This document shows positions 37,829 through 42,717 of a stretch of DNA of 64,000 bases, piece after piece (within the stretch, counting starts at the first letter, position 1; every line of letters starts with the position of its first letter). The position numbers were made by a program, and so were the translations under genes. Origin of the DNA: Nitrospiria bacterium (GTDB lineage Bacteria; Nitrospirota; Nitrospiria; JACQBZ01); assembly GCA_035498035.1 (NCBI GenBank), contig DATKAN010000025.1, forward strand, positions 17,190 through 81,189. Reading direction: 5' to 3'. The notes below the pieces were generated by a model. The model ran no database searches and was not told where the DNA came from. It saw only the letters and a program-made list of their open reading frames with translations.

Positions 37829-37878
37829 TTGACAAGCCCCGCCCGCTCGATTATAGTATAGGTGTCCATTTGGACACC
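37829..37878 (+). promoter_or_regulatory. lexA promoter (TTGACA-17-TATAGT) with 7-4-7 perfect palindrome GGTGTCC-ATTT-GGACACC at +1 (candidate LexA operator)
   Basis: -35 at 37829-37834, -10 at 37852-37857, palindrome at 37861-37878. lexA ATG at 37891. Confidence 0.5.
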
Positions 37879-37890
37879 CATTGAATCCCG

Positions 37891-38499
37891 ATGAAGAACC
37901 CGCTGACCGACAGGCAGGCCGAGGTCCTGAACTTCGTGAATCAATTCATCGCGAGGTCCGGATATCCGCCCACCGTCCGCGAGATCGCACGGCATCTCGG
38001 GATCCGCGGACACCACGCGGTCCGAAAGCATCTCCTGGCTTTGGAAAAAAACGGTCACCTCACCCGCGGGCGCGGCGCGCGATCGATCGGGATCGCCGAT
38101 CAACCTCAGGCCGTTTCCGTCCCGATCCTGGGCCAGGTGGCCGCGGGAAAGCCCATTCTCGCGGAAGAAAACATCCTCGGAACTTTGGCGTTGGACCGAT
38201 CCGTGACGCGCGGGGGTCCGGTCTTCCTTTTGAAGATCAAGGGCGACAGCATGATCGGAGCCGGAATTTTAGACGGCGATTACGTGCTGGTGAAAGCGCA
38301 GGCCCAGGCCGAGAACGGGGAGATCGCGGTGGTCCTGGCGGAGGACGAGGCCACCGTGAAGCGCGTCTTCCGCCGCGGCGACAAGATCGTTCTGCAACCC
38401 GAGAACCCCGCGCATCAACCCATGACATTCACCCCAAAAGACGCCCTTCGTATCCTCGGCAAGGTCCTGGGCGTGGTCCGGTTTCCCAATCTCAATTAG
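37891..38499 (+). CDS. lexA: LexA repressor (winged-helix DBD + S24 peptidase)
   Basis: LexA_DNA_bind N-terminus (TDRQAEVLNFV...GYPPTVREIA). AG cleavage site (QVAAGKPI). Ser-Lys dyad (KGDSMIGAGI...AVVLAEDEATVKR). Confidence 0.85.
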   Translation: MKNPLTDRQAEVLNFVNQFIARSGYPPTVREIARHLGIRGHHAVRKHLLALEKNGHLTRGRGARSIGIADQPQAVSVPILGQVAAGKPILAEENILGTLALDRSVTRGGPVFLLKIKGDSMIGAGILDGDYVLVKAQAQAENGEIAVVLAEDEATVKRVFRRGDKIVLQPENPAHQPMTFTPKDALRILGKVLGVVRFPNLN

Positions 38500-38517
38500 T
38501 CAAGAGGAGAGCTTCGA

Positions 38518-39497: not shown

Positions 39498-39770
39498 ATG
39501 GGCCGGACGCTGGCCACCTTCACGATGCAGGTCAATCAGGCCCTGGAGGAATGGGGAAAATTTAAACGGGCCCTGCGCAAAGAGGATCAGGCGATTATCG
39601 AGTTGCTTTTTGCCGATGCGCGCTATCATGCGCAGGCCGGGGCTTATCTCGCGCCGACCGATCCCTTCTCGGCCATGCTCCTTTCGATGCTGCTCGAGGA
39701 ACGCAAAGCGCGTCTGGCTTTGGAGAAACGGCTCCATGAACTCGAAACCGGATTCAAGGCGCAGGCTTAG
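39498..39770 (+). CDS. Small helical hypothetical protein (90 aa)
   Basis: ATG 4 nt after the preceding stop. Coding-like composition. No family recognised. Confidence 0.4.
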   Translation: MGRTLATFTMQVNQALEEWGKFKRALRKEDQAIIELLFADARYHAQAGAYLAPTDPFSAMLLSMLLEERKARLALEKRLHELETGFKAQA

Positions 39771-41970
39771 GGGCTGGTTGTTCGACGTCTACCCTGCCGC
39801 TGAAGGCATGGTCCTCTGGATCATCGCGGAGGACGGACGTCGGCTCCGGCTGACCGATCCGTTTCATCCTTCCTTTTATTTCGAGGGTCCGTCGATTGAA
39901 TCAAGAAACGCCGTTCTTCATCTGTCACGCGAAAAGACTCCCGTCACGGCCCGGCACGTCGAGCGCAGCGAGTTCTTCAGCGGCCGGGCGATCCCGGTGG
40001 TGCAGGTTACAGTCCACGATCCCACGGAATACGTCGGCATCGTAAAGAGGCTCGTCCGTATCGGCGACCGACTGCAATTCTATAATTGTGACATCGACCT
40101 CTCTCAGCTCTATTTCTATGAACGAAACCTATTCCCTTTGGCCTTGTGTTCCGTGGATCGCACCGAAACGGAAACGATCCAAACCATCCAAGCGCTCGAT
40201 TCGCCCTGGGATCCGGATTATTCCCTTCCCCCGCTCCGCTCCATGCATCTGCGGTTGGAAGGGGACCTCATCAATCCAAATCACGGAGGTCAAGGGAAGC
40301 TTGAGATCCGGGATGACCATGGCCGGTGTGTGCTTGAAGGGGATGATCCGGCCGAGGTGTTGACCGGGCTCAACAATCACCTCCGTAAAAACGATCCGGA
40401 CCTGATTTTCACCGATTGGGGAGACTCCTTCATCATCCCGCATGTTCAAATGCTTTCGGAGCGATGCAGGATTCCGGTCGCCTTCAATCGCGACAGGCGC
40501 ATGGCGATCGCCGGGAAAAAGATGCGTTCCTATGCCTCCTATGGACGGATGGTCCACAGCGCCGGGGCGCAGACCTTCTTCGGCCGTTGGCACATCGACC
40601 GGCAGAATTCGTTCATTCTCAACGAGGCGGGTCTCGAAGGACTGTTTGAACAGGCCCGGGTCACAAAGCTCCCGATTCAGCATATGGCCCGGACCTCGAC
40701 CGGAACGGGGATCACCTCCATGCAGCTTGAGACGGCTTACCGGGCGGGAATCCTCATTCCGTGGCGAAAGAGCGAGCCGGAGGAGTTCAAGTCCGGCTTC
40801 GAGCTGCTCACGATCGATAAAGGCGGCATGGTCTTTCTTCCGCCGGTGGGTTTTCAGGAAGAGGTCGCCGAGCTTGATTTCGCCTCGATGTATCCCGCCA
40901 TCATGGCCCGGTTCAACATCTCGCCCGAAACGGTCGGCTGTTCCTGCTGCCCCGGAAATCGCGTTCCGGAAACGGGCTATACGATCTGCACAAAACGAAA
41001 GGGACTTGTCCCGGAAACCCTCGAGCCGCTTCTTGCCAAGCGAGCGCAGTATAAACAACGACTCAAATCCACGACCGATCCGAAACGGCGTGAACGTTAC
41101 GATCAGCGCCAGAACGCGCTGAAATGGCTGCTCGTGGTCTCCTTCGGTTATCTGGGTTACAAGAATGCCCGTTTCGGGCGCATCGAAGCGCATGAGTGCG
41201 TGACGGCTTACAGTCGTGAGACGCTTCTTCAAGCCAAGGAGATTGCGGAAGGCCGTGGCTATCAACTCCTCCATGCCATCGTGGATTCCGTCTGGGTCAA
41301 GAAGGCCGGTGCGACGGAGCCCGACTATCGGAAGCTTGCGGATGCGATCACTCAGGGAACCGGCCTTCCGATCAACCTGGAAGGGATTTATCGTTGGATC
41401 GGGTTCCTTCCCTCGAAGACGCGGCCGAGCCTTTCGGTTCCGAACCGGTTTTTGGGCGTCTTTCGTACCGGAGCGATGAAGATACGGGGCCTGGAAGTGC
41501 GCCGCACCGACACGCCTTCCCTGGTCAAAGAAGCTCAAACCCGTATGATCGAGGTTTTAAATCAGGCCCAGGATCTTAAAGAATATGAGGCACAAATTCC
41601 TGAGGTCGTCAAAATCCTGGCCGAATACCGTCGGCGACTCGTTGAAGGACAGGTCAATCTAAGAGAGCTGGTCATCACGCGAACTCTTTCCCAGGACCCC
41701 CGGGAATACAAGAAGGCGACGCTTTCGGCCGTGGTTTCCCATGAACTGTTGGCCCGCGGGGTCAAACTCGCGCCGGGGGAAGCGATTCAGTACGTCATCA
41801 CCCATGACGCGGATAAAGATCCGGCCGGCCGGGCCCGGGCCTATGCGACCCTCACGGCGGATCATGCCTATGACGTCGAAAAGTACAGCGAGCTGCTTTT
41901 AAAAAGCGGTGAAAGCCTCCTCGCCCTGTTTGGCTACGATCTTAAAAGGCTGGAGCAATTGACCCGATAA
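39736..41970 (+). CDS. Family-B DNA polymerase, divergent: exonuclease motifs inactivated, polymerase motifs B/C and KKRY eroded
   Basis: PolB N-terminal domain (GWLFDVYP...). Motif A [10 protein letters not shown] intact. Motif B [12 protein letters not shown] (N and Y lost). Motif C HAIVDS versus YGDTDS. Exo I RLE versus DIE. Exo [12 protein letters not shown] (FD lost). KKRY replaced by NRFL. Start overlaps the upstream small ORF by 35 nt; alternative TTG at 39784. Confidence 0.8.
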   Translation: [744 protein letters not shown]

Positions 41971-42024
41971 ATATCCAGACAGTGACTTGATTCACCGCCC
42001 GGGCGAGGGCTATGATGAAGCCCT

Positions 42025-42717
42025 ATGTGCGCGAGATACACCCTTACGGAAGAGATCATCCTGATCCTGAAACGCCTGTTGATCAAGTCCCCGATGAGAG
42101 ACTTCCACCCGCGGTATAATATCGCGCCCTCCCAGAACGCGCCCGTCATCCTGAACGAAGAGGGAAGATCGGTTCAAGTCTTCCGCTGGGGGCTCATCCC
42201 CTCCTGGGCCAAGGATCCGTCCATCGGCTATAAGTTGATCAATGCCCGCGCCGAGTCGGTCGCCGAGAAACCCAGTTTCAGAAATGCATTTAAAAAAAGA
42301 AGATGCCTCATTCCGGCCGACGGGTTTTATGAATGGCGTTTGGAATCGGACGGCCGAACGAAGACCCCCATGCGAATCCGGCTCAAATCAAAGGAGCCGT
42401 TCACCTTCGCCGGGCTATGGGAAACATGGAAGGACCGGCAGGAAAAAGAGTTTCGGACCTTTACGATCATTACGACCGAGCCGAATGAAATCCTGCAACC
42501 GATACATAACCGGATCCCCGTGATCATGAAACCGGAGGATGAAGAAGCCTGGCTCGACCCGCAGGCCGACGTCAAGCATTTGGAAAAGATTTTAGCGCCC
42601 TATTCGTCAAACGAGATGGAAGCCTACGCGGTGTCTAAGTTGGTCAACAGTCCGAAACACGATTCGCCCGACTGCATCGAACCGGCCGTGGTCCCACCTC
42701 CTTCCACGCTATTTTAA
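42025..42717 (+). CDS. yedK: SOS-response-associated peptidase (SRAP/YedK/HMCES family), abasic-site DNA-protein crosslinking enzyme
   Basis: Starts MCARY (invariant Cys2 nucleophile). SRAP core motifs (PRYNIAPSQ, FRWGLIPSWAKD, INARAE, RCLIPADGFYEW). Confidence 0.8.
   Translation: MCARYTLTEEIILILKRLLIKSPMRDFHPRYNIAPSQNAPVILNEEGRSVQVFRWGLIPSWAKDPSIGYKLINARAESVAEKPSFRNAFKKRRCLIPADGFYEWRLESDGRTKTPMRIRLKSKEPFTFAGLWETWKDRQEKEFRTFTIITTEPNEILQPIHNRIPVIMKPEDEEAWLDPQADVKHLEKILAPYSSNEMEAYAVSKLVNSPKHDSPDCIEPAVVPPPSTLF

Follow-up and report, generated by a model that had tools for sequence, protein, structure and literature searches.

What kind of damage response is encoded where a lexA gene is followed by a degenerate RecA-fold protein and a family-B DNA polymerase? 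The question is raised by a six-gene cassette in a Nitrospiria bacterium (GTDB lineage Bacteria; Nitrospirota; Nitrospiria; JACQBZ01), which occupies positions 37,829 to 42,717 of a 64,000-nucleotide stretch of DNA, referred to here as the window (assembly GCA_035498035.1, contig DATKAN010000025.1, positions 17,190 to 81,189 of the forward strand; coordinates below are those of the window unless a surveyed locus is named). An original prediction, made from the letters alone, had described these genes as a LexA-headed cassette for damage tolerance or mutagenesis, not known as a described cassette, in which an ImuA-like protein is followed by a polymerase that may stand in for ImuB and/or DnaE2. 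We conclude that the locus is a new instance of the published bacterial PolB2 mutasome operon, a module of archaeal origin. Very probably it is a chromosomal, LexA-repressed iRadA-PPB2-PolB2 operon that has been extended by a gene for an SRAP protein and by a clade-specific gene for a cysteine-rich protein.

The damage-tolerance reading is supported by our analysis and equals a hypothesis that had already been published. The cassette itself had been described as well. Makarova, Krupovic and Koonin reported in 2014, for several bacterial genomes, a linkage of PolB2, arCOG07300 and an inactivated RadA, with lexA in the same predicted operon in some of them, the example being LFML04_0990-0993 of Leptospirillum ferriphilum (PMC4104785). 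The lexA-iRadA-arCOG07300-PolB2 arrangement was analysed again in 2025 by Timinskas, Timinskas and Venclovas, from whom the names iRadA, PPB2, PolB2 and "PolB2 mutasome" are taken (PMC11791011).

The polymerase is a PolB2 with an altered motif C

The fifth gene of the cassette (39736-41970, + strand) encodes a protein of 744 amino acids. It matched the family-B polymerase domain DNA_pol_B (PF00136, E=2e-41) and the model NF004416 (E=5.5e-124), and the Pfam exonuclease domain (exo1) was found below threshold (E=0.008) and with partial coverage. Comparison with KOD polymerase indicated that the Asp of motif A (D381) and the Lys of motif B (K463) are kept, and that the first Asp of motif C is lost, I515-V516-D517 taking the place of D540-T-D542. 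The Exo II motif reads WGDSFI, as against NGDNFD in KOD; Exo I and Exo III appear to be lost too, as judged by eye against the KOD sequence. Over the first 400 residues of the PolB2 of L. ferriphilum (WP_014960732), the identity with the window protein amounts to 48% (E=4e-123). The stretch of the window protein from motif B to motif C, which ends in HAIVDS, is a near letter-for-letter match to bacterial and archaeal PolB2 rows in a supplementary table of PMC11791011. By its motif C (IVD) and its decayed exonuclease motifs, the polymerase belongs to the PolB2/Dpo2 clade. The prediction of a degenerate family-B polymerase was borne out, and the sequence points to a deficiency in proofreading.

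All of 12 homologs share G283, R284, H286, D288 (next to R289) and N291. A GRWHIDR segment in this region, also present in bacterial PolB2 sequences of PMC11791011, likely holds in D288-R289 a candidate D(K/R) motif, which may be the counterpart of 253-DK-254 in the Sulfolobus islandicus (S. islandicus) enzyme. In PolB2 mutasomes, the D(K/R) motif belongs to a loop in contact with PPB2 and comes after the segment to which iRadA binds.

We considered the possibility that the polymerase is catalytically dead and that a PolB2-iRadA-PPB2 complex recognises or remodels stalled forks, or regulates replication restart. The replacement of the first motif C Asp by Ile and the degraded exonuclease motifs would fit such a role, and Makarova et al. 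had indeed proposed that PolB2 serves in the elimination of stalled forks or in regulation (PMC4104785). The motif C change is shared, however, by Dpo2 of S. islandicus, which reads IID at this place (PMC11791011) and is nonetheless a robust enzyme in vitro, active and exonuclease-free, which inserts nucleotides with high fidelity and efficiently extends mismatched or lesion-containing ends (PMC8764526). In vivo, Sulfolobus Dpo2 is damage-inducible and is required for, and solely responsible for, targeted mutagenesis (PMC7390963). Furthermore, none of the bacterial homologs that we aligned departs from the motif A Asp, the motif B Lys or the second Asp of motif C. A dead polymerase is thus unlikely, though it survives better than the other alternatives discussed below.

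Four cysteines of the polymerase are also invariant in the 12 homologs, in the pattern C402-x-C404-C405-x12-C418 (residues 402-418, window 40939-40989). The aligned part of KOD polymerase contains no more than a disulfide pair. The four residues could form a metal-binding site; no mention of the pattern was found in the portions of PMC11791011 considered here. Two further ideas were discarded. The C-terminal LLALFGY, which resembles a QLxLF clamp motif, aligns to the structural thumb segment RILRAFGY of KOD. As to a role of the cassette in anti-phage defence, PADLOC returned nothing but a model of homing endonucleases in which polymerase sequence is included.

The RecA-fold protein is an inactivated RadA

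The third gene (38784-39494, + strand) encodes a protein of 236 amino acids, which had been likened to ImuA/SulA. As a single sequence it gave no match in Pfam or in the PDB. We collected 75 homologs and used an alignment of 29 members as a family profile. This profile matched RadA of Pyrococcus furiosus (E=1.9e-8), the block ISRAFTxHQ, which is invariant in the alignment, falling on VARAFNxxHQ of RadA. Archaeal RadA models of NCBIfam were matched by 20 of the 29 members and Pfam Rad51 by 15; the NCBIfam matches of the family were RadA, DMC1, Rad51 and RadB, and neither the 29 members nor the window protein matched any ImuA or RecA model. The fold points in the same direction: with an AlphaFold2 model (predicted local distance difference test, pLDDT, 80; predicted template-modelling score, pTM, 0.81), the top 50 Foldseek matches in the PDB were all RadA, Rad51, DMC1 or Rad51 paralogs.

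The Walker A motif is destroyed. In the window protein it reads G41-FIGHR-G47-V48-F49 instead of GxxxxGKT, the Lys and Thr being replaced by Val48 and Phe49, and in the alignment GFIGHRGVF occupies the place of GxxGSGKT of RadA. The protein is also devoid of the N-terminal helical domain. It matches phrog_16666, a family with no function assigned (E=1e-7). In view of its family profile and of its modelled fold, we identify it as an inactivated archaeal-type RadA (iRadA). Because the profile and fold matches are to RadA and Rad51, with no match to ImuA, it is not ImuA-like, and the ImuA/SulA assignment was abandoned; that the protein is a degenerate member of the RecA fold was correctly recognised from the start. 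Its conserved C-terminus, W-x-[LF]-P-x-[LIV]-x-[FLV], is no more than a candidate for a beta-clamp-binding motif. Such a motif is present, in iRadA or in PolB2, in only a fraction of the members of the PolB2 mutasome.

PPB2 and SRAP are the direct neighbours of the polymerase gene in the window

The small gene that precedes the polymerase gene (39498-39770, + strand) encodes a helical protein of 90 amino acids starting with MGRTLATFT. To place the cassette among its relatives, we called open reading frames (ORFs) in 81 loci (designated by L numbers) and then carried out iterated profile searches; the counts of gene order and linkage given below use the loci with enough flanking DNA. Of the 69 PPB2 orthologs surveyed, 64 started with MGRT or VGRT. 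An MGRT arm is a hallmark of PPB2 (arCOG07300; PMC11791011). Orthologs in metagenome contigs are annotated as PF26485 (DUF8156), and the window protein matched phrog_30126 (E=2e-11), again a family with no function assigned. We identify it, from its N-terminus and these family matches, as PPB2 (arCOG07300/DUF8156).

The last gene (42025-42717, + strand; 230 amino acids) encodes an SRAP protein. The match to PF02586 (E=3e-77) covered positions 1-210 of the 214 of the model, and the translation, which starts with MCARY, contains Cys2, Asn73, Glu103 and His161. The roles of these Cys, Asn, Glu and His residues are established by the biochemistry of YedK and HMCES. The assignment to SRAP/YedK with Cys2 as the nucleophile, as first proposed, was thus confirmed.

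The core of the cassette is widely conserved, with no recognisable mobile element

PolB2 relatives are numerous: more than 5500 proteins were found at E<1e-10, and at least 579 species genomes hold one. They come from Nitrospirota, Armatimonadota, Chloroflexota, Acidobacteriota, Bacteroidota and Ignavibacteria, NC10 and Thermodesulfobacteriota. The genes for iRadA and PPB2 were directly upstream of the PolB2 gene in 62 of 66 bacterial loci, so that the survey of gene neighbourhoods confirmed the conservation of the gene order; loci with the order iRadA-PPB2-PolB2, the only one reported for bacteria (PMC11791011), span Nitrospirota, Armatimonadota, Chloroflexota, Acidobacteriota, Bacteroidota and Ignavibacteria, and Thermodesulfobacteriota. 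In the other four (L032, L049, L050 and L057), iRadA and PPB2 were undetected by the profiles in spite of ample DNA upstream of the PolB2 gene. These loci may have divergent or fused accessory genes, or a stand-alone polymerase.

The outer genes are more variable. Of 57 loci, 21 have a lexA or lexA-like gene upstream in the same orientation and 5 have one that is divergent. All six genes are found again in this arrangement in L001 and L082-84; SRAP is missing from it in L002 and lexA in L085, and L089, a short contig, carries lexA, the gene for the cysteine-rich protein and iRadA. An enrichment of LexA (108), SRAP (134) and DUF72 (119) has been reported among 1823 neighbourhoods of polB2, and at least one row of the published table reads SRAP-LexA-iRadA-PPB2-PolB2 (PMC11791011).

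Is the cassette a host repair operon or the cargo of a mobile element or prophage, akin to a pipolin, a casposon or a phage module? Its flanks differ completely among the window, L001, L082 and L085 despite 73-85% DNA identity of the cassettes, as cargo might do, and the cassette of L085 is directly adjoined by an IS110 transposase gene. Yet no integrase, Cas1, tRNA or terminal repeat was found in the flanks, and repeats at the borders were not above chance, in agreement with the earlier remark that no integrase or other mobile-element marker is present. Both iRadA and PPB2 match PHROG families, and contigs of IMG/VR carry near-full-length PolB2 relatives (36-43% identity), which suggests that viruses or proviruses may carry parts of the module; but these contigs are three (L090-L092) out of 2.9 million, to be compared with the at least 579 species genomes mentioned above. 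In addition, the polymerase is neither a protein-primed nor a casposon PolB, and a bona fide LexA as the regulator agrees with a host SOS gene. We consider a mobile cargo quite improbable and dropped the idea of a phage or mobile-element origin. Since integrase, tRNA and border repeats are lacking and the viral contigs are so few, the cassette is best described as a discrete chromosomal module with no recognisable mobile element.

Still less probable is that the cassette derives from imuA-imuB-dnaE2, with a PolB replacing ImuB and/or DnaE2 beside an ImuA-like protein, for although it is headed by lexA and has a RecA-fold protein without ATPase motifs ahead of an error-prone polymerase, this protein groups with archaeal RadA/Rad51 by profile and fold with no ImuA match, neither a Y-family ImuB-like gene nor a C-family polymerase is found in the cassette, and the iRadA-PPB2-PolB2 triad exists in archaea, the published phylogeny indicating a single transfer of the whole operon from archaea to bacteria (PMC11791011). 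The proposal that the polymerase stands in for ImuB or DnaE2 retains its value as a functional analogy, but the module is an archaeal import and not a variant of the Imu system.

LexA and its putative operator co-vary

The first gene (37891-38499, + strand; 202 amino acids) matched TIGR00498 with 197 bits (cutoff 111; E=2.3e-58), and both PF01726 and PF00717 are present. The translation contains an Ala85-Gly86 cleavage site and Ser120 and Lys157, within the motifs VAAGKP, GDSM and TVKR. From these features, the product is a bona fide LexA, with a winged helix and an S24 peptidase domain, and is predicted to be a cleavable repressor.

Upstream of lexA, a sigma-70-type promoter (37829-37857, + strand) consists of TTGACA (37829-37834), a 17-nucleotide spacer and TATAGT (37852-37857), and agrees with the consensus at 11 of 12 positions. 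Three nucleotides past the -10 hexamer lies a perfect palindrome of 18 nucleotides, GGTGTCCAttTGGACACC (37861-37878), the putative LexA operator, which has the structure 8+2+8 (GGTGTCCA-tt-TGGACACC). It occurs a single time in the window, where about 0.03 chance matches would be expected at up to 3 mismatches. The original prediction of a canonical lexA promoter therefore holds for the promoter proper but not for the operator, which is a lineage-specific palindrome rather than a CTGT-N8-ACAG box of the E. coli type.

A palindrome was present between the -10 hexamer and the start of lexA in every relative with a true LexA, and its sequence varied together with that of the recognition helix. In the window, the operator aGGTGTCCAttTGGACACC (37860-37879) goes with a recognition helix that begins RGHHAV (38005-38050), and the same RGHHAV goes with AGGTATCCAttTGGATACCT in L082. 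The helix begins NGLHAV in L001, where the operator is AGGTGTACAttTGTACACCT, KGISAV in L089 (AGGTGAACAtaTGTTCACCT) and KGFSAV in L002 (AGGTAAACAaaCGTTCACCT). More distant Nitrospirota have the operator GTGAACAAATGATCAC, and one locus, L044, has the E. coli-like TACTGTACATAGATACAGTA. No change is seen in the outer AGGT...ACCT or in the CA..TG, and the inner bases vary symmetrically in both half-sites. The inner half-site tracks the first residues of the recognition helix: TCC with GHHAV, TAC with GLHAV and AAC with G[IF]SAV. Such co-variation is the pattern expected of a dimeric autorepressor that co-evolves with its site and is supportive of the predicted binding of LexA. The clade would thus offer a natural specificity series of co-varying LexA helices and operators, which may be new; no published LexA motif of Nitrospirota was found in the literature that was searched. 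The operators of the clade resemble the GTAC-N4-GTAC (cyanobacterial) and GAAC-N4-GTTC (Gram-positive) classes of LexA motifs.

A different protein was encountered in Nitrospira and Nitrospiraceae loci (L004-L010, L013, L017, L028 and L046). The "lexA" match upstream of iRadA begins there with MTAKQFKQxRIRLGYTQAKL and looks like an XRE-type helix-turn-helix joined to an S24 peptidase domain, not like the LexA winged helix. These XRE-S24-like genes are preceded by a different palindrome, TGTAACATTTTGTGACA.

A cysteine-rich protein is specific to a Nitrospiria clade

Between lexA and iRadA, the window contains an ORF of 76 codons (38517-38747, + strand), preceded by a ribosome-binding site (AGGAG, about 8 nucleotides upstream). 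Its conserved residues are C11-x2-C14, H16, C29, H49 and C52, in a core that reads W-x-C-P-x-C-x-H ... N-x-C ... IDG-x2-WE ... DHD-x-CP-x-F. No family was found for it in Pfam, NCBIfam, PHROGs or PADLOC. Homologs are rare, 11 having been found in 5.8 billion clusters and 10 in 1.84 billion representatives. Counts by codon position, made against L001 and L085, revealed a modest excess at the third position only. We nevertheless take the ORF as coding because it is intact in at least seven diverged loci, has invariant cysteines and is preceded by a ribosome-binding site.

The AlphaFold2 model is poor (pLDDT 62); a Foldseek search with it gave no match at E<3, and a profile search of the PDB gave only noise (E~1). 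The label of C4 zinc ribbon that the protein had received is plausible as a tentative assignment.

The close members of this family are confined to a narrow Nitrospiria clade, in which they are linked to the cassette at every locus found. Without exception they immediately precede iRadA: in the lexA-iRadA interval in the window, L001, L002, L082-84 and L089, and, in L085, behind the IS110 transposase gene, which takes the place of lexA. In L002 (5371-5787), about 400 nucleotides of GC-rich, apparently non-coding DNA separate lexA from the gene for the cysteine-rich protein; the window has 17 nucleotides there. Distant family loci are L086 (232-920) and L087 (5001-5261). The gene for one distant member (P0211, E=4e-6) runs into the beginning of a DUF72 gene (PF01904, E=2e-25), and that for another (P0213, E=1.6e-5) belongs to a cobalamin-synthesis cluster, in which it is flanked by CbiX and a CobD-like aminotransferase. 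As DUF72 is among the families noted beside polB2, the first of these raises the possibility that the cysteine-rich family is tied more widely to DNA-damage genes.

This gene is the one part of the cassette that the literature examined does not cover, and it appears to be undescribed. Most likely, its product acts in the same damage response as an accessory protein or a regulator that is particular to this lineage. A more specific proposal, that it is a dedicated component of the SOS/PolB2 module in the Nitrospiria clade, acting as a metal-binding accessory subunit or as a regulator of the mutasome, is possible but is put forward tentatively.

Borders of the cassette and transcription unit

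All six ORFs were found on the + strand, as predicted, and they are tightly spaced. The distances between them, from lexA through SRAP, are 17, 36, 3, -35 (an overlap) and 54 nucleotides. DNA homology between the cassette of the window and those of L001, L082 and L085 begins at 37815, with the promoter, and ends at 42718, with the stop codon of the SRAP gene, and the flanking genes are wholly different among these four loci. The cassette is a conserved block that runs from the promoter through the SRAP stop codon. Its tight spacing and the lack of a convincing internal terminator suggest that the six genes form one transcript.

On the far side of the SRAP gene, 49 nucleotides past its stop codon, there is a weak terminator-like hairpin with a T-rich tail (42766-42790, + strand), a mere consensus match of a kind no commoner than in shuffled sequence. 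Further on, an ORF of 79 codons on the same strand (42958-43197) encodes a CxxC...CxxC protein (MNCLKCSG...WRCIYCGD). It gave no family match and falls outside the block that is conserved in the relatives.

Proposed mechanism

The following mechanism would account for the organisation of the locus. In undamaged cells, a LexA dimer would sit on the palindrome just past the -10 hexamer and block its own promoter. Upon damage, RecA filaments would induce the self-cleavage of LexA at Ala85-Gly86 through Ser120 and Lys157, residues that are all present, and the six genes would then be transcribed as a single unit. PolB2 would bind one iRadA through a loop that resembles the one used in Rad51 oligomerisation, and a trimer of PPB2, which would insert one of its MGRT arms near the active site. 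This is based on published AlphaFold models of a PolB2:iRadA:PPB2x3 heteropentamer, obtained for 40 complexes including those of Leptospirillum and Manganitrophus (PMC11791011), and of the features concerned it is the motifs that were checked here, the D(K/R) motif being a candidate. By analogy with Sulfolobus Dpo2, the proofreading-free complex would extend mispaired or lesion-opposed primer ends and so allow survival at the cost of mutations. Finally, from what is known of SRAP biochemistry, Cys2 of the SRAP protein would form cross-links with abasic sites of single-stranded DNA where forks have stalled and thereby shield them. The operon would thus probably serve, upon SOS induction, to extend DNA past lesions by an enzyme free of exonuclease activity, while SRAP protects abasic sites.

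Several observations weigh against this interpretation. For bacterial PolB2, everything that is said on activity, complex formation and induction is an extrapolation, based on work with Sulfolobus and on in silico modelling. A second copy of the operator was sought in the 64-kilobase window and none was found that would define a regulon. No canonical beta-clamp motif is evident in the PolB2 of the window, and the clamp-motif columns are empty for the Nitrospirota rows in the table of PMC11791011. SRAP is found downstream of PolB2 in 5 of 68 surveyed loci, which makes it an optional component. Inside the 54-nucleotide gap ahead of the SRAP gene there is a weak promoter-like site (TTGATT-18-TATGAT, 41987-42016), so that its co-transcription with the other genes is uncertain; from this site, the expression of SRAP might be partly independent of LexA.

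A LexA-repressed PolB2 mutasome operon is, with these points taken into account, the interpretation that we retain. The locus does not reveal a new kind of system, and what it adds is the gene for the cysteine-rich protein and the series of operators and recognition helices, both of which may be new. More generally, the cassette is a further example of a family-B translesion polymerase complex of archaeal derivation and predicted SOS control, which many bacterial phyla carry instead of Pol V and ImuABC or in addition to them. The locus described here is a compact, all-in-one operon of this type, comprising repressor, operator, the three mutasome genes, an abasic-site shield and the gene for the cysteine-rich protein. 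This one-operon layout would suit heterologous reconstitution.

Comparison with known systems

The closest relative among described systems is the PolB2 operon of L. ferriphilum (group 1a of the PolB2 mutasomes). The window shares with it the core genes and their order, a lexA gene immediately upstream and the IVD motif, as well as a PPB2 with an MGRT arm and an iRadA without Walker A; SRAP as a neighbour had also been reported already. It differs from the L. ferriphilum operon by the additional gene for the 76-residue cysteine-rich protein between lexA and iRadA, and from most PolB2 operons by the presence of both lexA and SRAP in one tight, same-strand unit, a minority arrangement.

Dpo2 of S. 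islandicus is a homologous polymerase in which the first Asp of motif C is likewise replaced by Ile and the exonuclease is dead. Its gene also adjoins those for iRadA and PPB2, and its expression is induced by damage. Experiments have shown it to be the translesion extender and the origin of targeted mutagenesis, a role that is predicted for the version of the window. The Sulfolobus enzyme is, however, much smaller than the PolB2 of the window, with a more decayed exonuclease domain, and its host makes use of PCNA and of an Orc1-2-type regulation rather than of a beta-clamp and LexA.

The resemblance to lexA-imuA-imuB-dnaE2 is one of logic: SOS regulation (predicted in the present case), a non-catalytic RecA-fold protein joined to an error-prone polymerase, and damage-induced mutagenesis. 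The components are different, since ImuA is not of the RadA type, ImuB is a Y-family scaffold and DnaE2 a C-family polymerase, and none of these is found in the cassette of the window. E. coli Pol V (UmuD'2C-RecA) is similarly a LexA-controlled, multisubunit mutasome with a subunit of the recombinase family, and its small subunit has an N-terminal arm near the active site, as modelled for PPB2; unlike the system of the window, it has a catalytic subunit of the Y family and uses an active RecA. E. coli Pol II (polB), in turn, is an SOS-induced extender of family B, but it is a single-subunit enzyme with active proofreading, and the protein of the window scores 61 bits against the Pol II model, the cutoff of which is 570.

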